A DNA stretch of 64,000 nucleotides from Bacillota bacterium. GTDB taxonomy: Bacteria; Bacillota; Limnochordia; DTU080. Numbering within the stretch: position 1 is the stretch's first letter; the number at the start of each line of letters is the position of its first letter. Position numbers and translations under genes: made by a program. Below the pieces are notes generated by a model. It did no database searches. It was not told the DNA's origin and was given only the letters and a program-made list of their open reading frames with translations. Positions 5,418 through 37,662 of this stretch are shown here, piece after piece. Where the stretch lies: NCBI GenBank assembly GCA_012840225.1, contig DULU01000089.1, positions 14,089 through 78,088 on the forward strand, given 5' to 3'.

Positions 5418-6506
5418 CTAATAACCCAGAAAAGCCCTCTTCTCCCGGTGGTAATAAAGGTAAGTGTCCAGAGGAACGTCGGCCGGCACCCGGTGGTCGA
5501 CATGCGGAATAAACCCACCTTCCGCTATGACGGGCTCCAGCCGCCGCAACTCGGCCAGCACCGCCTCCTTTCCCTGCAGGAGGCACATTTTGTCGAAGCC
5601 GCCGAGAAGGAGGATCTGCCGGCCATATTCCCGGCGCAAAGCCACAGGATCGGAGCCGGCCCTCACCTCGATGGGGAACATACAATTATAGCCGGCCTCC
5701 AGCCAGATGGGCACCAGGGCGTTGATGTTGCCGTCGCAATCGGTGAAGATGACGTCCACCCCATATTGATGCAGGAGGTCGGCAATCGCCTTATACCTGG
5801 GCAAAAGCAATTCCCGCAGCATAGCGGGGCTGATCAGCGGGCCATTGTTGAAGCAGATGTCTTCCCACCCGTGTGCATAATCGAATCTGATAAGTTCCAG
5901 ATAGGGCTTGATGCCCTGGATGATCAGCTGGAACTGGGTCTCCACGATCTCCTCCACCAACTCCGGATCATCATATAAAAGATAGGCCAGGTTCTCCACA
6001 CCTATGCGGTTGCGGGGCGTGCCGATCAGGGAACCGATACTTATCCCCACAGGATAATCGGCCTGATTATACTTCTCCGCCAACTGCTGCAGGTGCTCCG
6101 GTGCAGGCCGGCGCCCGGGGGTCGCCGGATTAAGTCTTTCTTTATATTCCTCCCAGCTGGCCTTGTCTTTGATGGGGTAGGAAAGATAATGCGGGATGGT
6201 AGCCTCTCCGCTTCGCGGTTGGGCATATATGATGCCTTCACCATCCTGCACAATTTCCACATCATCCCTTCTCTCCAGCACTTTTGGCTGAAAAGGCGGC
6301 AGCAGTCCCAGCGGCGGTCCAATGGCCACCCGCTTGTCCAGCCCGAAAAAGGCATCGGCTTCCCGCTCGCTGTTGATATGCTCCGGCAATCCCTGCTTGT
6401 GCCACACTTCATAGCATTGCTTCCAATAGCCGAATTCGTAGTTGGGCACCCTGTCCACCGGCTGAAAATGAAAGGTGCGCTGCCAGCGCTCCCTGGCATT
6501 CATCAA
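5418..6506 (-). CDS. Uroporphyrinogen decarboxylase (URO-D/MtaA-like) family protein
   Basis: F..VDRVP, WEDICFNNGPLISP, DCDGNI, GGFDK and GGFIPHVDH motifs. Confidence 0.85.
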   Translation of the reverse strand: MMNARERWQRTFHFQPVDRVPNYEFGYWKQCYEVWHKQGLPEHINSEREADAFFGLDKRVAIGPPLGLLPPFQPKVLERRDDVEIVQDGEGIIYAQPRSGEATIPHYLSYPIKDKASWEEYKERLNPATPGRRPAPEHLQQLAEKYNQADYPVGISIGSLIGTPRNRIGVENLAYLLYDDPELVEEIVETQFQLIIQGIKPYLELIRFDYAHGWEDICFNNGPLISPAMLRELLLPRYKAIADLLHQYGVDVIFTDCDGNINALVPIWLEAGYNCMFPIEVRAGSDPVALRREYGRQILLLGGFDKMCLLQGKEAVLAELRRLEPVIAEGGFIPHVDHRVPADVPLDTYLYYHREKRAFLGY

Positions 6507-6848
6507 CGATCATTCTCCCTTCGCTGCCTGCGTCGCAATTCGTTCCAGCCCAAACATCACCATCATCTTATTTAACACCATCTTATTTACCACCGCTCAT
6601 CTCTTTCCTTCGTTTTTCTGCGAACGCCACGAAAACTATATGAAAGTTTATGGGCGTATAGATAGTATTAAAGTCCTATTAGGTCCCGGTGTCGTTTTTA
6701 TTTAACCTATAAAAAGTATGCCTATAGATAGAAGGAACATAGCACCAGCAATAAGAATAGCGATTTAAACTCCGCAAAATATCGATTGTAACTTACAGCA
6801 ACTATCTTCCTACTTTGTTAAGGTAGAGGCGTAGGAGTTGGTTCCTAG

Positions 6849-7454
6849 ATGGAACGTCTGGCGGGTGCAGTGGGGGCATTCCTGGCCGAACAGCTAAATT
6901 TGGACAATGATCGCCGCGAACAGCTTTCTTATGGAGCGTTCATCGCATTGCAGAGTGTCCTGGTGTTCGTTATTCTGCTGGCTATCGCCCTCCTCTTCGA
7001 CATCTGGCGCCAGGCGTTGGTTATCGCCTTCACGGCCGCCTCATTACGGTGGAAAGCAGGTGGCTCACATTTAGGGAGCGCCACCGTTTGCACCGTTCTT
7101 TCCATTGCTGTTTTCACCGGCAGCAGCCTCCTGGTAAAAAGCGGGACCGCTTATCTGGCCGCCGCTTCGCCCTGGACACTGTTGCTCCTGGTTTTGGCCT
7201 CAACTTTGGTCGCTTCCGTGTGCGTCTTTATGTATGCCCCGGTGGAAGCCGCCACCCGCCCCTTGCGCCCTGAACACAAGGAGAGGTTAAAAGCAGCGAG
7301 TCGAAAGCTGGTGTTGGCATACTCGTTATGTGCCCTTGTAGCTGTACCATTTTACAGATGGCTCGGATTGAGTATCGCAATGGGTTTATTGCTGCAAAGC
7401 TTCACTTTGACACCGGCCGGGATCAAAATAGCGCACATCCTGGATAAAAAATAA
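6849..7454 (+). CDS. agrB: Accessory gene regulator B (AIP-processing membrane peptidase)
   Basis: LR..AGGSH......C catalytic His/Cys motif, YAPV...RP motif, multiple TM helices; directly upstream of an AgrD-like ORF. Confidence 0.92.
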   Translation: MERLAGAVGAFLAEQLNLDNDRREQLSYGAFIALQSVLVFVILLAIALLFDIWRQALVIAFTAASLRWKAGGSHLGSATVCTVLSIAVFTGSSLLVKSGTAYLAAASPWTLLLLVLASTLVASVCVFMYAPVEAATRPLRPEHKERLKAASRKLVLAYSLCALVAVPFYRWLGLSIAMGLLLQSFTLTPAGIKIAHILDKK

Positions 7455-7484
7455 TACCTACATAAGTAGATAGGAGGTGAAAAC

Positions 7485-7604
7485 ATGAAGAAGATGCTGC
7501 TGGGGGTCATTACCACCCTGTTGACCACCCTTGCGGTTACCAGCGTTGCTGGTGCCTGCATGTGGTTTTGGTATCAACCGCCGGTTCCCAAATCTCTGGA
7601 GTAG
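7485..7604 (+). CDS. agrD: AgrD-like cyclic (thio)lactone autoinducer precursor, 39 aa: MKKMLLGVITTLLTTLAVTSVAGACMWFWYQPPVPKSLE
   Basis: Translated by hand (absent from the ORF track). AGGAGGTG RBS, amphipathic leader, Cys-x4 core CMWFW, and the YQP.xP..L tail typical of clostridial AgrD. Confidence 0.92.
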   Translation: MKKMLLGVITTLLTTLAVTSVAGACMWFWYQPPVPKSLE

Positions 7605-7658
7605 TATCAACCTAATCCCAGATCCCGGCCGGCTTCCCTAAACAGGTGGTAATGCGGT

Positions 7659-8123
7659 TTGTCCACAACAATTGTACTCTTAGCACTATTGCTGTATATA
7701 CCTACTTCGATTTTATGCCTTTATGTAGGCTTGCGTGTTATCGGATATGTGCCGAAAGCAAAGCCATTATTGATTTTCGGTGCGCTGCACGGAATATTAT
7801 TAACAATATTCCACAATACGCCACGCCTCTTCGGTTTGCACATTCCTTTAAATACGTTAACCATGATATTAATAATATATTACCTAGCCAGATGCAGATT
7901 GGGAATGGCGGTATTAGCCGGACTGGTGGCGGTTCTTCTAACCGCTATCGGCGAGGGTCTATTCACAGCCCCTCTATTTTTATTAATGGGGGTCTCATTG
8001 GAAGAATCAATTAAAACTTTTGGATATAGAATGCTTGGCGGCTGGTTTGGAAATATATTATTATTGCTTATAAGCTTGGTTTTATACTTCCAAGGCAGGC
8101 ATAAAGGAGCTTCAAAAGCATGA
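7659..8123 (+). CDS. Polytopic membrane protein resembling a stand-alone AgrC-type sensor (input) domain
   Basis: 154 aa with about 5 hydrophobic segments and no kinase domain; lies right after agrD; stop overlaps the next start (ATGA at 8120-8123). Confidence 0.65.
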   Translation: MSTTIVLLALLLYIPTSILCLYVGLRVIGYVPKAKPLLIFGALHGILLTIFHNTPRLFGLHIPLNTLTMILIIYYLARCRLGMAVLAGLVAVLLTAIGEGLFTAPLFLLMGVSLEESIKTFGYRMLGGWFGNILLLLISLVLYFQGRHKGASKA

Positions 8124-9610
8124 ACTCCACCAAAGACCGCTTAGTCTGGCTGGCTTGCGGCGTATTGCTCATCGCCTGGGTGATTGCCGCAGCGGCGAAC
8201 CTCGGACTGCGGCATATATGGATAAACATCGATGAAGCAGAGGAGTTGTTTCATTGGAACTACACTCCTCTGCTTTTAGGTGCTGCCTTGGTCTTGGCCG
8301 GCGGCGTGCTGGCTTGGCTTTTCTATTCTCTCGGCACTCAGGAGCTCAGAGAGAAAGCCGCCATGGAAAAGCGCTTCCGCCAGATCCTGGAGGAAGCCTG
8401 TCGGGGTACCATGCACACTTTAAGCAGCGCCTTGGATTTGCGCGACGACGGTACTTATGGCCACAGCCAGCGGGTGACCGGTTATAGCGTGGCCATCGGC
8501 AAGCGCATGGGCCTGGATCACAATGAGCTGCAAATCCTGGCATGGGGTTCTCTCCTCCATGACTTGGGCAAGATCGGCATTCGCGACGAGATTCTGCTCA
8601 AGGCCGGACCGTTGGACGAAAATGAAAGAATGCAGATCAACAAGCACGCCATCATCGGTTGGCAGTTAGTGAAAGGTATTCCCTTTCTGGCAAAAACCGC
8701 CGATTTAATCAGACACCATCACGAGCGCTGGGACGGCACAGGTTATCCCGACCGCTTAAAGGGCAACGAAATCCCTCTTTTGGCTCGCATATTTACCGTG
8801 GCCGATGCTTTTGACGCTATGACTTCGCTCCGGCCTTATCGTTCCGTCCCATTTGATATCGACGAGGCCCGCGCCGTGATCAAGGCGGAGTCAGGGAAGC
8901 AGTTTTGCCCTCAGGTGGTGGAAGCTTTCCTCTCCATTTCCGATCTGGAACTGGAAGAAGTGCGCAACCACAGCATCATGCCCCTCTCCGACCCCAGGGT
9001 TCTATACCTTTTGGACATTGCATCGGAAGATATAAGCGATGCTTATTATCAGGATATCCTCACCGGTACCCGCAACAGATCAGCTTGGGAAATGAAGCGG
9101 GCGCAGATGATTTTGAAACGCGGTCAGGATTTGGGTATTCTGGTGTTTATAGATCTGGACGGCTTTAAAGATGTGAACGACATCCACGGGCATCCGGCCG
9201 GCGACCGGGTTTTGGCGGATTTAGGAGCGCGCCTGCTCCAGATCGGCTGTGAAAGCTATCGCCTGGGTGGCGACGAATTCATCCTCTGGTTCCCCAAGGA
9301 GACCACGCTGGCCGATGTGAGCAAACGGATGGAAAGCATTGCCGCCAATTTCGTCACCGACTGGAAACACTTAAAATGCGGGCTCACGGTCAGCTGGGGA
9401 GTGGCGATGGCCACCGAAGCCACCGAGTCTTTGGATCAACTTTTATATGAAGCAGACCGTGCTATGTATGGCCGGAAACGATCGAACCGCGCCGGCTATT
9501 ATACCCCCATCTACCCGGTAGGCAGCAATTATCCCATCATGGAGAACGACCAGGTCAAACTGGCTAAAAAAAAGATCAAGCCACAAACCGTGCACCGCAA
9601 CGGCACATAA
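8120..9610 (+). CDS. Membrane-anchored HD-GYP phosphodiesterase / GGDEF diguanylate cyclase
   Basis: Two N-terminal TM helices. HD-GYP motifs GHSQRV, LLHDLGK, HHHERWDGTGYP, VADAFDAMTS.RPY; GGDEF motifs DILTG..NR, FIDLDGFK.VND..GH..GD, YRLGGDEF. Confidence 0.93.
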   Translation: MNSTKDRLVWLACGVLLIAWVIAAAANLGLRHIWINIDEAEELFHWNYTPLLLGAALVLAGGVLAWLFYSLGTQELREKAAMEKRFRQILEEACRGTMHTLSSALDLRDDGTYGHSQRVTGYSVAIGKRMGLDHNELQILAWGSLLHDLGKIGIRDEILLKAGPLDENERMQINKHAIIGWQLVKGIPFLAKTADLIRHHHERWDGTGYPDRLKGNEIPLLARIFTVADAFDAMTSLRPYRSVPFDIDEARAVIKAESGKQFCPQVVEAFLSISDLELEEVRNHSIMPLSDPRVLYLLDIASEDISDAYYQDILTGTRNRSAWEMKRAQMILKRGQDLGILVFIDLDGFKDVNDIHGHPAGDRVLADLGARLLQIGCESYRLGGDEFILWFPKETTLADVSKRMESIAANFVTDWKHLKCGLTVSWGVAMATEATESLDQLLYEADRAMYGRKRSNRAGYYTPIYPVGSNYPIMENDQVKLAKKKIKPQTVHRNGT

Positions 9611-9633
9611 GGCAGATAAATATGAGAACAAAG

Positions 9634-9689
9634 AAAACGGGCGGAGCGCTTTACGGCTATATAGCCAAGGAGAACTCCGCCCGCTTTTA
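9634..9689. terminator. Probable bidirectional terminator between convergent genes
   Basis: aaaa-cgggcggag ... ctccgcccg-ctttt inverted repeat. Confidence 0.6.
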
Positions 9690-9745
9690 CTTTCAGGCTT
9701 GCCTATTCAACCGGCTCGCCTTACACCGTCGCCGGTGCTTTATTG

Positions 9746-11014
9746 CTAATTATCCGTACCTATTTCATACGCCGCATCCAAAACCAGGTCGATTTGATGC
9801 TTGGCCTCCAGCAGGCCGTCCATCACCGATTTCTCACCCGTCATCACCGGGGTGAGGGCGGTGCGTTTGGCGGTCTGCCAAGTCGCCCAGTCCGGGCTCC
9901 AGTCGGCATCGGTCATGAAGGCCACCGACTCCATCAGCACCTGCTGAATTTGGCTGGGCCTTCTCATCTGACTAGCGAGGGCGCGCACGGAAGGCAGGCT
10001 GTAGGGAACGGCATATGAGGTCCAGAAGGCCTCCAGGGTCTCCAGGGTGATGAGCTCGCGCATAATGGTCATGATGGCCGCCATATCCTGATTGGGCCGG
10101 CGCACTACTTCCCACATGTTGGAGCCGCCGTAGGCATTCCAGGTCACCGGACCTCTCGGCATGGGCGCCACATCCCAATGCAATTCCGGTTTGGCCCGCA
10201 CATTGTTTATATAATGGCTGCCGTGGATCTGGAAACCGGCTTTGCTGTCGAGGAAATAAGAACCGCCAAACGCCGCCGCCCGGTCCTGCAGCACCAGATC
10301 GGCCAAGAAGCGGGTAGCGGCGGCAGCTTCGGGAGAATCCAGCCCGGATGATTTGCGGTCGGGCATGAGGACGTTACCGCCATAGGCTTTGACCAGCGGA
10401 TCGAAGACCAGATGGGTGAGGTCTACCACCATGCCCCAGATATCGATGACACCGTCGCCGTTCTGGTCCTGAGTGATCTTCCGCGCCGCCGTGCGCAGAG
10501 TATCCAGATTCCAGGCGGCGGTGGGCGAGTTCACCCCGGCGTTGGCCAGAATAGTCGGGTTATACCAGAGCATCGAACCTACCGTGTCGTAGGGCAGGCC
10601 GTAAATGCCGGCTCCGTCCGGCTGGGGCCATCTGACCTCGTTCCAGGGCCCCGGCCAGAAGAGGTTTTCGCTCAAATAATCGTCTTTGGCCAGATAAGGA
10701 GCCAGGTCTACGGCACCGTTCCTGATCACATGGCCGAACAAGTATGTACCTGCCGTGTCGATGATGTCGGGAGCCATTTCGGTGCCCATGAGGATCAACA
10801 TTTTATTCCAGAAATCCGGGAAAATAATCACTTCCAACTCGATGTCGGGATGCTTGGCCTGCCACTTCGGTACCAGGACGTCGCGCATGATTTCATACCT
10901 TGGGTTGGAATAGGTGGCAATGGTCACTTTTGGTCTTGCCGCCAGGGCGGCTGCGCCGGAAACCAGAACCAATACCATTACCATTACCAGGATGCCTATT
11001 ACCGGTCTTCTCAT
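9746..11014 (-). CDS. ABC transporter sugar-binding protein
   Basis: Signal peptide; HPDIEL, APDII, YGLPY, WYNPTIL..AG and WDVAPMP.GP motifs. Confidence 0.9.
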   Translation of the reverse strand: MRRPVIGILVMVMVLVLVSGAAALAARPKVTIATYSNPRYEIMRDVLVPKWQAKHPDIELEVIIFPDFWNKMLILMGTEMAPDIIDTAGTYLFGHVIRNGAVDLAPYLAKDDYLSENLFWPGPWNEVRWPQPDGAGIYGLPYDTVGSMLWYNPTILANAGVNSPTAAWNLDTLRTAARKITQDQNGDGVIDIWGMVVDLTHLVFDPLVKAYGGNVLMPDRKSSGLDSPEAAAATRFLADLVLQDRAAAFGGSYFLDSKAGFQIHGSHYINNVRAKPELHWDVAPMPRGPVTWNAYGGSNMWEVVRRPNQDMAAIMTIMRELITLETLEAFWTSYAVPYSLPSVRALASQMRRPSQIQQVLMESVAFMTDADWSPDWATWQTAKRTALTPVMTGEKSVMDGLLEAKHQIDLVLDAAYEIGTDN

Positions 11015-11223: not shown

Positions 11224-14200
11224 GTGTTCTCCATACGCAGGACGGAAATTCATATCGGTGCCCGCCGGGGCTTATTCCATCTCTGGGCCACAGAAGGTGC
11301 CGCCTCTGCCGCCAGATCCTTCAGGGCAGCCGGTACCTATTTTCCTGGGGCACTTTCATATGATGAGTTAAAAAGTATCATAAAATCTATCGTCGGAGGT
11401 TCACACAGCATCGGCTATCCTGTCAAAGCGTACATCTGGCTCCCGGAAGAGCTTACGGCGCGCTCCAGAACCGCCGGCAGCCGGGGAAGGCTTTTGCCTT
11501 ACGCCATTCCCACCATCGGCCTTGATGAAGAAACCGCTGTGGCCATACTTCACGCCTGCCTCTCCAGGCAAGCTTTTGCCGGGAACATCTTCCCGGCAGC
11601 CGATCTCCTCTATTGGACTTATGCGCTCAGACTGGCCATCATCTTAATCGTCAAGCAGCAATACCTGCCGGGCCTGGTTTCCACCGATTTTGTTGGCTGG
11701 CGGGCGGTCTGGGAGCCGGTTTACAGCGATGAGACGGCTGAATTTTGCAACCGGCTGGCGCAGTCCATGCCAGGAGCAGCGCGGGCCATCACTATGGATG
11801 ATCATGAGCCGCCGGGCCAATCAGCGTCCGATTGTATGTGGGCGGTGGTCCGCACCTTGGTGGATTACCTGGTGCGGGCGGCTCAGGACCAGTCATTATC
11901 GCGCCTGCGCCAATTATCTGCCGATAGCCTGCATGATGATTGGATAGCCGCCTTAATGAACATCTATGGCTATCTGGATGATAAGTATAAAGATGCGCCT
12001 AAATGGCAGCAGCAGCTACAGGCCTGGCAGCGCCCCATCAAGCTGGTCGCCGGGGCGCCTTTCCGACTGTGCCTGCGCCTGGAGGAGCCGGTGCCGCCGA
12101 CCGAGGACTGGCACCTGCGCTTCCTGGCCCAATCCCGCCATGATCCCAGCCTGCTCATCCCGGCTGCCGATATCTTCTCCAACAGGAAGATATCGCCCTA
12201 CCTCCCCAAATCCGAGATCCGGGAAGCCTTGCTGATGTCCCTGGCGCTTGCCGCCAACATCTCCAAGGCGGTGGAAAAAGGCCTGCAGCAAAAGGTACCG
12301 GACGGCTCCACCCTTGACGGCGATGCCGCTTTCCATTTCCTCACCGAGGAAGCGCCCCGGCTGGAAGAGGCCGGTTTCAGCATCATGCTGCCGGCCTGGT
12401 GGGTGAAGGGCACAGACTCTCAGCTCAAAGTGAAAGCCGAAGTGAAAAGTCCACCCATGAAGACCAAAGGGCGCCTGTCCCTGGATGCCCTGGTGTCGAT
12501 AGATTGGCATCTGCTGCTGGACGGCGAAGAAGTGGCCGTTGAGGAAATCAAAGCATTGGCCAAGCTGAAAACTCCCCTGGTGCAGATGCGCGGCCGATGG
12601 GTAATGCTTAAGCCTGAAGACATGGAGGCCATAGCCGCCTATTGGCGGCAAAAGGAGAAAAAAATAACCGCCAGGCAGTTTATCAATATGGCCTTGACCG
12701 GTCAATCGCCCATTTCCGGGCTGGCTCTCGCCGATTATAAAGCGGACGGCTGGCTGGGACAAACCCTCACCCGGCTGGAAAACAAGAGCAGCATCTCAGA
12801 CTGTCCACTGCCCAAAGGATTGAACGGCGTGCTCCGGCCATATCAAAAAAGAGGTTATGACTGGCTGCAATTTCTCTGCCGCGCCGGCTTGGGCGCCTGC
12901 CTGGCAGACGATATGGGTTTAGGAAAAACCATCCAGACTCTGGCTTCCATCCTGAAAGACAAGGAAGACGGCGAGCAGAAACCTGTATTGATCGTCTGCC
13001 CCACCTCCGTGCTCAACAACTGGCTGTTGGAGGCCCGGAAATTCACTCCCGAACTGAAGGTGATGGTGTATCATGGCTCCGGGCGGCTGAAAGAGGACCA
13101 GTTCAGCGAGGAGGCCGGTGCCCATGATCTGGTGCTCACCACTTATTCCTTGCTGCATAGGGATGTGAAGAGTATGGCGCGGCTCCGCTGGGCCGGTGTG
13201 GTGCTGGACGAAGCCCAAAATATTAAAAATCCGGAGACCAAGCAAGCCCGGGCGGCGCGCACCCTGGCTGCCGCCGCCGACTACAGGATTGCCCTCACCG
13301 GTACACCGGTAGAGAATCATGTCGGCGATCTCTGGTCCATTATGGAATTTCTCAATCCCGGCATGCTGGGGACGGCGGCGGATTACCGCCGGCGCTTCTT
13401 CCTCCCTATACATCACTATAACCAGGAAGAGGCCGCCGCAGAGCTAAAGAAGCTCACCGGGCCGTTTATCCTGCGCCGGGTGAAGACGGATAAAGCCATC
13501 ATCGCCGATCTGCCGGAGAAGATAGAGAGCAAGGCTTATTGCGGGCTTACCAAGGAACAGGCTTCGCTGTACCAGGCCGTGGCCAATGATCTTCTGGAAC
13601 AAGCCGACGCCGCTGAAGGCATGGCCCGCCGGGGGTTGATCCTTTCGGCTTTGACCCGCCTAAAGCAGGTCTGCAACCATCCGGCTCTGTTTCTCGGCGA
13701 CCATTCTGCGCTGACTGACCGTTCCGGCAAGCTGAACCGGCTGACGGAGCTATTGGAGGAAACGCTCAGTGCCGGCGACCGCAGCCTGATCTTCACCCAA
13801 TTTGCGCAGATGGGCGAGCTGTTGCAAGATTACCTGCAGGAGAGATTCGGCCAGGAGGTGCTGTTCCTGCACGGCGGGGTACCGAGGAAAGAACGGGATG
13901 AGATGGTGACGTGCTTCCAGCAAACCGCAAACGGCACAAGTGGCCCCCGGGCACCGCAGATATTTATTCTCTCCCTGAAAGCCGGCGGAACCGGTCTCAA
14001 CCTGACGGCGGCCAATCACGTCTTTCATTTCGACCGCTGGTGGAATCCGGCGGTGGAAAACCAGGCCACAGACCGGGCCTTCCGCATCGGTCAGAAAAAA
14101 GGCGTCCAGGTCCACAAATTTATCTGCCGGGGTACCCTGGAGGAGCGCATTGACGAAATCATTGAGCAGAAGCGGGGCATGGCGGAAATGGTGGTCGGCA

Positions 14201-14283
14201 GCGGCGAGCAATGGCTGACGGAGTTGACCACCTCCCAGCTGCGGGAGCTGATCATGCTGGCCGGCGACGTCACGGCCGAATGA
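11224..14283 (+). CDS. SNF2-family (SWI2/SNF2) helicase/ATPase
   Basis: LRPYQ, LADDMGLGKT, LDEAQNIKN, ALTGTPVEN, KAGGTGLNL and WWNPAVENQATDRAFRIGQ motifs. Confidence 0.95.
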   Translation: MFSIRRTEIHIGARRGLFHLWATEGAASAARSFRAAGTYFPGALSYDELKSIIKSIVGGSHSIGYPVKAYIWLPEELTARSRTAGSRGRLLPYAIPTIGLDEETAVAILHACLSRQAFAGNIFPAADLLYWTYALRLAIILIVKQQYLPGLVSTDFVGWRAVWEPVYSDETAEFCNRLAQSMPGAARAITMDDHEPPGQSASDCMWAVVRTLVDYLVRAAQDQSLSRLRQLSADSLHDDWIAALMNIYGYLDDKYKDAPKWQQQLQAWQRPIKLVAGAPFRLCLRLEEPVPPTEDWHLRFLAQSRHDPSLLIPAADIFSNRKISPYLPKSEIREALLMSLALAANISKAVEKGLQQKVPDGSTLDGDAAFHFLTEEAPRLEEAGFSIMLPAWWVKGTDSQLKVKAEVKSPPMKTKGRLSLDALVSIDWHLLLDGEEVAVEEIKALAKLKTPLVQMRGRWVMLKPEDMEAIAAYWRQKEKKITARQFINMALTGQSPISGLALADYKADGWLGQTLTRLENKSSISDCPLPKGLNGVLRPYQKRGYDWLQFLCRAGLGACLADDMGLGKTIQTLASILKDKEDGEQKPVLIVCPTSVLNNWLLEARKFTPELKVMVYHGSGRLKEDQFSEEAGAHDLVLTTYSLLHRDVKSMARLRWAGVVLDEAQNIKNPETKQARAARTLAAAADYRIALTGTPVENHVGDLWSIMEFLNPGMLGTAADYRRRFFLPIHHYNQEEAAAELKKLTGPFILRRVKTDKAIIADLPEKIESKAYCGLTKEQASLYQAVANDLLEQADAAEGMARRGLILSALTRLKQVCNHPALFLGDHSALTDRSGKLNRLTELLEETLSAGDRSLIFTQFAQMGELLQDYLQERFGQEVLFLHGGVPRKERDEMVTCFQQTANGTSGPRAPQIFILSLKAGGTGLNLTAANHVFHFDRWWNPAVENQATDRAFRIGQKKGVQVHKFICRGTLEERIDEIIEQKRGMAEMVVGSGEQWLTELTTSQLRELIMLAGDVTAE

Positions 14284-37214: not shown

Positions 37215-37370
37215 GCCTGGGTGATATCACCGGAGCGCTTTGTCGCCGGAATCGCTTCCGGGTTTTGTCGCCCGCTTGCGGCCGTGATCAGCCGAGTGGT
37301 ATCCGCCGAATCTTTCGATGAACCACTGCCTCGTCAACTTGCCCAATAGGGTAAGTCCCGGCGCTGAAAG
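37215..37370 (-). ncRNA. glmS riboswitch-ribozyme
   Basis: Minus strand reads AGCGCCGGGACU...AGUUGACGAGG..GGUUCAUCGAA..UUCGGCGGAUACC...ACAAAAC...ACAAAG, the glmS ribozyme core, upstream of glmS. Confidence 0.93.
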
Positions 37371-37662
37371 TCAAACTAAACCTCCATCTCCGCCTTGCCG
37401 CTCATCAACCTACCGTGTCACACCTCCTCTCCAGTTTGGCAGTCTCCTCTCCTCAGGCCATGTGCATGAGATAGATTATGACATAATCCGGAGGACGGCG
37501 CAAGAACGACGGCTAGGGGGTCCGCGGGAAAAAAATGCTTGATGATAAGCTTTTCATGACTTTTGGCATAGTCTGTTAGGTTGACATAATCCCGTCATGA
37601 TCGTTATTCTTGGTTTGTATACTTTTACTTTCACTTTTTGCTTATAGATAGGGGGCTTATTA

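Follow-up and report, generated by a model that had tools for sequence, protein, structure and literature searches.

At positions 6849–9610 of a 64,000-nucleotide (nt) stretch of DNA from a Bacillota bacterium (contig DULU01000089.1; hereafter the window, to which all coordinates refer) lies a four-gene operon that combines agr-type peptide signalling genes with an enzyme of cyclic dimeric guanosine monophosphate (c-di-GMP) turnover. All four genes are on the forward (+) strand, and the genes that flank the operon are on the opposite strand. The first gene, agrB (6849–7454, +), encodes 201 amino acids (aa), matches Pfam family AgrB (PF04647, E = 1.9e-30) and carries GGSH at residues 71–74 and Cys81. 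After a gap of 30 nt follows agrD (7485–7604, +), which encodes a 39-aa precursor of an autoinducing peptide that matches NCBIfam TIGR04223 (E = 3.8e-13) and has a single cysteine, Cys25. After a further 54 nt, a gene at 7659–8123 (+) encodes a stand-alone five-helix membrane protein of 154 aa, here called M154, which by profile comparison is homologous to helices 1–5 of AgrC-type sensors. The last gene (8120–9610, +) encodes a membrane-anchored HD-GYP + GGDEF enzyme of 496 aa, a putative c-di-GMP phosphodiesterase/cyclase according to its Pfam matches and motifs, and its start codon overlaps the M154 stop codon in the sequence ATGA at 8120–8123 (+), an arrangement that suggests translational coupling. 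The enzyme begins with two transmembrane helices (residues 8–26 and 51–69; 8141–8326, +, from hydropathy) that are separated by an outer loop of ~24 residues, and continues with an HD-GYP domain (residues 101–265; 8420–8914, +; PF13487, E = 6.9e-35) and a GGDEF domain (residues 310–457; 9047–9490, +; PF00990, E = 1.6e-24). Pfam detects no kinase domain in the operon. The initial annotation of this DNA had described the four co-oriented open reading frames (ORFs), the GGxH..C motif of AgrB, the small agrD, the ATGA overlap and intact catalytic motifs in both enzyme domains, and all of these were recovered, including an AgrD match above the family cut-off. No Rfam element was found upstream of agrB, and counts from a promoter and terminator scan did not exceed those in shuffled sequence.

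AgrB at 6849–7454 is the sole AgrB match in the window's genome, the assembly of which comprises 154 contigs and is 96.6% complete. The histidine of GGSH and Cys81, which we take to be the catalytic pair as in Staphylococcus aureus AgrB, belong to a predicted membrane peptidase that would process and cyclise AgrD. AgrD scores 49.2 bits against a cut-off of 19 and is 72% identical to the agrD product of a relative genome, G001. Its Cys25 is followed by MWFW and then by YQPPVP, and by analogy with the family pattern the ring would be C-M-W-F-W (Cys25 to Trp29).

The enzyme carries HDLGK at residue 147, HHE at 200, GYP at 208, DLDGFKDVND at 345 and GGDEF at 383, and is putatively both an HD-GYP phosphodiesterase and a GGDEF diguanylate cyclase. 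An inhibitory-site RxxD is expected a few residues before GGDEF; the sole RxxD of the enzyme, at 334, lies 49 residues before that motif. Seventeen relatives of 448–478 aa have matching architecture at 48–61% identity, two of them labelled as proteins of Bacillota and Symbiobacteriaceae metagenome-assembled genomes. In the resulting 18-sequence alignment the two-helix N-terminus is conserved, HDLGK, HHE and GYP are invariant (18/18), and the GGDEF motif is intact in 16 members and degenerate in two. The window's genome uses c-di-GMP: eight matches to the GGDEF domain, which by their listed coordinates belong to about six open frames, are accompanied by one PilZ protein and a single c-di-GMP-I riboswitch. 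This riboswitch, found outside the window at locus L306 (G000:C59:4043-4133; 68.8 bits), precedes a reading frame of 480 aa or more that is open at its 3' end and whose last part is an HD-GYP-like HHHENYDGSGFPDG stretch. The same contig has two GGDEF matches further along, and the whole could be a c-di-GMP feedback unit.

M154 belongs to no Pfam family and has no NCBIfam match at E ≤ 1. A word-seeded protein search with M154 matched only the query itself, and a scan of genome contigs with the M154 sequence gave no relative. An exhaustive protein search returned 44 representatives, nearly all of them stand-alone proteins of 150–175 aa, and 15 relatives have the same length as M154 at 29–42% identity. 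In an alignment of 39 relatives (A1), Pro15, Arg52 and His61 are near-invariant columns, and the family residues P15, G59, H61 and E99 are present in the window's M154. An AlphaFold2 model built on the 39-relative alignment has a mean predicted local distance difference test score (pLDDT) of 95.6 and five membrane-spanning stretches, the last of which is interrupted by short kinks; it supersedes a single-sequence AlphaFold model of poor quality (pLDDT 67.8). M154 is not a complete six- or seven-helix bundle in one chain, and two more helices are found on the enzyme. Profile matches occur in 25 of the 95 genomes of the window's class, and a narrower profile (A2) matches in 97 of 401 sampled genomes of the phylum (E ≤ 1e-8). 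Most matches are stand-alone ORFs, and a minority form the first ~145 residues of proteins of 434–477 aa; a search with A1 for such longer, fused forms found none, and it was the whole-genome profile searches that did find them.

These fused forms connect M154 to AgrC. In 15 loci with 16 fused proteins, every one of the 16 consists of an M154-like N-terminus and a kinase core, and Pfam detects SPOB_a, HATPase_c and HATPase_c_5 in three of them. The fused kinase has agrB and agrD beside it in 10 of the 15 loci and a REC + LytTR gene in 12 (four confirmed by Pfam); these are ordinary four-gene agr loci. Alignment of A1 with the fused-kinase N-termini by hhalign gives a probability of 98.1% (E = 1.2e-13, 143 columns), and P15, R52, G59, H61 and E99 are kept in 15–16 of the 16 fused kinases as well as in the stand-alone forms. 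One fused kinase matches the NCBIfam AgrC model (NF046015) end to end (E = 2.4e-19), with residues 27–426 on model positions 16–398. In structural comparison, TM-scores of 0.76–0.77 over 143–144 residues relate the ESM Atlas model of M154 to the N-termini of clusters of ~450 aa, 98–99% of which bear HATPase_c_5. Because M154 is homologous to fused kinases that are linked to agrBD, and because the key residues are kept, we assign it as a detached homologue of helices 1–5 of AgrC-type sensors, that is, as a sensor half. The initial annotation had taken the 154-aa protein for a detached AgrC-like receptor; the homology to AgrC sensors bears this out, with the refinement that M154 matches only helices 1–5 of a sensor of seven. 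No solved structure for comparison emerged from the PDB, either by Foldseek with the M154 model (E ≤ 0.001) or by profile search of its sequences (E ≤ 10). A second superposition of the Atlas model, on the membrane portion of a SpoIIGA/Peptidase_U4 cluster (TM-score 0.69, 140 residues), suggests, at the level of models, that AgrC-type sensors and the SpoIIGA sporulation protease share a five-helix fold.

Gene neighbourhoods were surveyed for the window and 123 other stand-alone M154 genes, with ~4 kb on each side; ORFs were annotated with profiles made from the window proteins and from the kinases of relatives, and representatives were confirmed by Pfam. Kinases are the only output in the same-strand cluster at 69 of these 124 loci (agrB and agrD in 51, LytTR in 12). 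The initial annotation had suggested that agr genes, a small membrane protein and a c-di-GMP enzyme would recur together elsewhere, and they do: 36 loci, from 35 genomes and 19 families, have only GGDEF and/or HD-GYP as output (agrB and agrD in 35), and five more have both kinds of output (agrB and agrD in four), with LytTR in none of either group. No output gene was detected at 11 loci (agrB and agrD in seven, LytTR in none), several of which are contig ends or misclassifications, and three loci have only an M154 fragment. The counts are slight underestimates, as L102, where a GGDEF + HD-GYP gene overlaps M154, was counted as having no output, and kinase matches at L109 and L161 were not counted.

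The gene that follows M154 is a kinase at 57 loci, agrB at 36, a second M154 at seven and a c-di-GMP enzyme at eight, including the window. The kinases are mostly 276–340 aa long, and those checked start with two helices, so that the five helices of M154 and the two of the kinase add up to the seven of the fused form. Given also that 12 kinase-type loci retain a LytTR regulator, M154 and the two-helix kinase evidently constitute a split AgrC. Stop and start codons overlap at 32 of 59 M154-to-kinase junctions and at seven of eight junctions between M154 and a c-di-GMP enzyme. Several further features of the surveyed loci deserve mention. At L137, L158 and L206 (G064:C149, window's class), kinase-type cassettes have a separate same-strand HD-GYP gene directly upstream of agrB, so a link between agr and HD-GYP exists also where a kinase is present. 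Tandem M154 duplicates occur at L097, L099, L132, L157, L177, L200 and others (seven M154–M154 junctions), with three full-length copies and a 40-aa fragment at L157 (G346:C38), which hints at several sensor specificities per locus. Split-kinase cassettes of the window's class at L013–L018 and L205–L209 have no LytTR or REC match within ~4 kb on each side, and DcuS/MalK-type models, not AgrC, are the best match to their kinase cores.

Cassettes with c-di-GMP enzymes come in two designs. In the commoner one, M154, agrB and agrD are followed by an enzyme of ~555–570 aa with 5–6 helices, GGDEF and HD-GYP. The N-terminal domain of this enzyme (~190 residues, 5–6 helices; L120, L107, L115 and the 24 sequences of alignment A3) belongs to no Pfam family, shows no relation to M154 or to the N-termini of AgrC-type kinases, and by its predicted helices is another uncharacterised membrane sensor domain. 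In a scan of named genomes, 18 of the 20 loci ranked best have agrB and agrD upstream of the commoner enzyme, and 17 of them have M154; record titles include Thermanaeromonas, Syntrophaceticus schinkii, Desulfoscipio geothermicus, Ammonifex, Romboutsia maritimum, Proteiniclasticum ruminis and others, and the Clostridium tarantellae contig begins at agrB, hence no M154 is visible there. As controls for chance association, agr genes were found at none of 60 lower-ranked GGDEF/HD-GYP loci (L231–L290) and at none of the 80 metagenome HD-GYP loci listed; no orthologue of the window's enzyme is among those 80 listed matches either.

The second design is that of the window, in which agrB, agrD and M154 are followed by a two-helix c-di-GMP enzyme that overlaps M154 by 4–23 nt (7/8 loci); at the eighth locus, the enzyme follows M154 at a distance of 179 nt, with agrD in between, and its N-terminus has five helices. 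Partners in this design are PAS-PAS-GGDEF-HD-GYP or PAS-GGDEF-HD-GYP proteins at L096 and L105 (by Pfam) and at L098 and L102 (by our own domain profiles), and HD-GYP-alone proteins, with helices at 13–31 and 51–69, at L182 and L199. The order HD-GYP then GGDEF occurs in the window only, among the 124 loci. Every enzyme that follows M154 or agrD in c-di-GMP cassettes has HD-GYP, and GGDEF is sometimes absent; by domain content, HD-GYP and not GGDEF is the constant catalytic part. In a tree of 145 M154 sequences, the M154s of the four PAS-type partners form a single clade with full support, and the window's M154 falls among kinase-type sequences, together with that of G001. Four changes of the label "c-di-GMP enzyme directly downstream" are needed on the tree, and at least two of them are forced by well-supported branches; the same sensor scaffold has thus received a new output module on more than one occasion. 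Our confidence in these comparative findings is high.

A canonical AgrC or AgrA was not found in the window's genome, within the completeness of its assembly. The initial annotation had stated that the window has no histidine kinase or LytTR regulator; this holds and extends to the whole assembly, where LytTR domains have no match, HATPase_c_5 none above its cut-off and SPOB_a none at E ≤ 0.1. The split kinase of a relative gives eight matches in the window's genome, all on other contigs and all confined to the ATPase part or the kinase core (query residues 118–308); none extends to the two-helix N-terminus. Similarity of the small protein to AgrC sensors, synteny in other genomes and the presence of a cognate AgrC/AgrA elsewhere had been named as the points on which the first interpretation would stand or fall; those that could be examined computationally all came out in its favour, and that interpretation is supported to this extent.

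The reading that we favour, with moderate confidence, is an agr-type operon with a rebuilt split receptor that would couple a cyclic peptide directly to a c-di-GMP enzyme. From the 39-aa AgrD, AgrB would produce a cyclic thiolactone peptide that is secreted. M154 would be the equivalent of AgrC helices 1–5, and the two N-terminal helices of the enzyme, as equivalents of helices 6–7, probably complete the seven-helix sensor. Basic residues of M154 are found in the loops at 28–36 and 78–81 and in the C-terminal tail, and this positive-inside pattern fits an N-out/C-in topology for M154 and an in-out-in hairpin for the N-terminus of the enzyme, as would be expected if an AgrC sensor had been divided within the cytoplasmic loop that links helices 5 and 6. 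By hydropathy, the two-helix N-terminus of the enzyme has a topology like that of the split kinases. The peptide would be bound by the composite seven-helix bundle, in which Arg/His52, Gly59-x-His61 and Glu99 would lie towards the outer half and form a candidate binding region. The signal may then pass along a helix that runs from the second transmembrane segment (residues ~70–100) into the HD-GYP domain, where binding would alter c-di-GMP hydrolysis, the primary regulated activity that we expect, and possibly synthesis by GGDEF, which could act as an opposing cyclase or as a regulatory domain. Cell density would in this way be read out as a c-di-GMP level without a kinase, phosphotransfer or AgrA. 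We infer the contact between M154 and the enzyme, the binding of the peptide, and the sign and size of the effect on c-di-GMP. A complex prediction for M154 and enzyme residues 1–105, run without controls, gave scores of 0.05 and 0.01 (mark 0.32) and speaks neither for nor against binding.

The stretch was found in 20 runs of 14 studies, from biogas fermenter, anaerobic digester, sludge and biofilm metagenomes. One anaerobic digester study has two metatranscriptome runs with contigs that bridge the gene junctions: one covers 7244–8118 (the end of agrB, agrD and M154), another 7061–7891, and a third 8071–9625 (the last part of M154 and the enzyme). Shorter pieces inside the genes come from two other RNA studies. 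Run X4 has no cover at 6400–6750 and 9676–9792 and was not used as evidence. Stretches of ~20 nt at 7474–7494 and 8720–8738 also match long, more abundant RNA-library contigs of other organisms that continue into unrelated sequence; these two are probably chance or conserved-motif matches.

Several observations weigh against direct coupling of the peptide to the enzyme. The commonest c-di-GMP cassette has M154 upstream of agrB and an enzyme with its own 5–6-helix domain, so that M154 could there serve AgrB instead of the enzyme, and hhalign finds no relation between M154 and that membrane domain. Such a role could extend to the window: M154 could be an accessory of peptide production (maturation, export or self-protection together with AgrB), and the enzyme, merely co-transcribed, would sense something else. 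Peptide maturation in S. aureus requires a second membrane protease, MroQ; the buried His and Glu residues of M154 could be catalytic, its Atlas model resembles the membrane domain of SpoIIGA-type proteases, as noted above, and at the 36 loci where M154 lies directly upstream of agrB it overlaps agrB in 29. Against an accessory role, the same domain with the same key residues forms the N-terminus of complete AgrC kinases, which is where a sensor and not a processing enzyme would be placed; 13 M154 + kinase loci have neither agrB nor agrD in the same-strand cluster, and M154 matches no protease family in Pfam or NCBIfam. We therefore regard an accessory role as unlikely.

The proposed receptor is also questioned by the way in which M154 is tied to AgrC. 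M154 alone does not match the staphylococcal AgrC model NF046015 (E ≤ 1), nor do the N-terminal 205–210 residues of four fused kinases match any NCBIfam model (E ≤ 10); the tie to canonical AgrC therefore runs via clostridial-type kinases, the cores of which score best against DcuS/MalK-type models. The two-helix regions of enzyme-type and kinase-type partners show no convincing similarity by hhalign, which found only a short linker match (76.5% over 30 columns; 40% for the window alone) that was not used. In addition, the assembly is incomplete, and a kinase or AgrA could sit on the missing DNA. The peptide might then be sensed by a kinase or regulator encoded elsewhere, in unassembled DNA or of an unrelated family, with the enzyme as operon cargo and any link to c-di-GMP transcriptional. 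Fragmentation into 154 contigs and the several unrelated kinases in the window's genome leave room for such a receptor, and there is a parallel in Clostridium perfringens, where the agr operon, CPE1563-CPE1562-agrB-agrD, has two co-transcribed upstream hypothetical genes and no kinase (PMC2706048), and where the conventional kinase VirS, encoded away from that operon, is reported as the receptor (PMC7492741). A hidden receptor is nevertheless quite improbable in our judgement, somewhat more so than an accessory role, given that no LytTR, SPOB_a or above-cut-off HATPase_c_5 gene was found in the assembly, that independent lineages repeat the overlap between the M154 stop codon and the enzyme start codon, and that LytTR accompanies none of the 41 loci with c-di-GMP enzymes compared with 12 of the 69 kinase loci.

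The remaining points against concern the window's own cassette. The near-invariant column 52, Arg in 90% of the family, is His in its M154. The 17 relatives of the enzyme are known as protein sequences, and among the 150 of 493 matches listed from the other 94 genomes of the class, none covers both enzyme domains. The contig of the nearest relative, G001, stops 3 nt past the M154 gene, before any partner gene. Three HD-GYP genes elsewhere in G001 were considered as its M154 partner and rejected, as they match the HD-GYP domain only (40–48% identity), as was a SPOB_a match, which is an unrelated multi-helix kinase. The RNA-library contigs may include DNA; they are supporting evidence and not proof of a single transcript. 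One could suppose, then, that the cassette is a decaying remnant in which the kinase of a split AgrC was lost to an inserted, unrelated c-di-GMP gene and M154 no longer functions. All other M154 loci of the class with a readable downstream gene have a kinase there, which would agree with such a history, as would the unique domain order and the substitution at column 52. All four frames are open with intact motifs, however, the two-helix N-terminus is kept throughout the 18-member enzyme family, M154 has its 15 same-length relatives, and RNA-library contigs extend over all four genes; decay is in our view very improbable.

In wider terms, the surveyed loci may represent a widespread class in which a free-standing five-helix AgrC-type module docks on interchangeable two-helix kinase, HD-GYP or GGDEF + HD-GYP outputs, and in about one-third of which, the window included, the peptide would set c-di-GMP turnover directly, without a phosphorelay or transcription factor; we put the chances of this only slightly above even. 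If it is true, there would be a new route from cell density to decisions on biofilm formation, motility or development, many "orphan" agrBD loci would be explained, and nature would provide a modular split seven-helix receptor in which the output domain has been swapped several times. Such a receptor would be useful for studies of AgrC signal transmission and for synthetic peptide sensors. Carriers of these cassettes are anaerobic-digester, thermophilic and gut Bacillota, in which aggregation and syntrophy matter, and as several carriers of sister cassettes are named and can be cultivated, the idea is open to direct tests. Elsewhere in the window, away from the operon, a glmS ribozyme/riboswitch at 37221–37376 (−; RF00234, 89.1 bits, E = 3.2e-19) is the only Rfam match above the gathering score, and a 1019-aa ORF at 11224–14283 (+) has, by eye and from its translation, the look of a SNF2-type helicase.

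A search of the full-text literature, which leaves subscription journals and supplements outside its scope, turned up neither a split AgrC nor any agr cassette that includes GGDEF/HD-GYP enzymes. To our knowledge, characterised agr systems all relay the peptide signal via a kinase to a DNA-binding regulator, and the links from peptide quorum sensing to c-di-GMP that we know of in Firmicutes have so far been indirect. Canonical agrBDCA loci, including the agrC-agrB-agrD-agrA loci L291, L299, L304 and L305 of other Bacillota, have AgrB and AgrD in common with the window, and their first five sensor helices are homologous to M154, with conserved Pro, Arg, Gly, His and Glu. The window differs from them in having no kinase domain, AgrA or phosphotransfer, in distributing the sensor over two polypeptides and in having HD-GYP + GGDEF as output. 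Split-AgrC cassettes of relatives (agrB, agrD, M154 and a two-helix SPOB_a/HATPase_c kinase) have the same gene order, M154 family, two-helix N-terminus and frequent overlap, and differ in that their catalytic module is a kinase and LytTR is kept in 12 of 69. The cassettes in which M154, agrB and agrD precede a 5–6-helix GGDEF + HD-GYP enzyme are like the window in having agrBD, M154 and a c-di-GMP enzyme with intact motifs and in having no LytTR, and differ in gene order, domain order and the multi-helix domain of their enzyme, which is no orthologue of that of the window.

Quorum signals are coupled to c-di-GMP in other bacteria by other means. RpfR of Burkholderia is a PAS-GGDEF-EAL enzyme that binds the fatty-acid signal BDSF directly, without a phosphorelay, and in RpfC/RpfG of Xanthomonas a kinase relays the signal to an HD-GYP regulator. 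Both resemble our proposal in that a quorum signal leads to a change in c-di-GMP, with HD-GYP as the output in RpfG; they respond to fatty acids, detected either in the cytoplasm or with a hybrid kinase, whereas the window would use a cyclic peptide and a membrane-bound AgrC-type module, and the sensors are unrelated. As direct coupling of a fatty-acid quorum signal to a c-di-GMP enzyme is already known from RpfR, what would be new here is the peptide/AgrC-type version. The C. perfringens agr operon is like the window in having agrBD without an adjacent AgrC/AgrA, and its upstream hypothetical genes recall the cassettes in which M154 precedes agrB and agrD; it differs in that its reported receptor is a conventional kinase, with VirS/VirR encoded elsewhere, in place of the split, enzyme-coupled sensor that we propose for the window.

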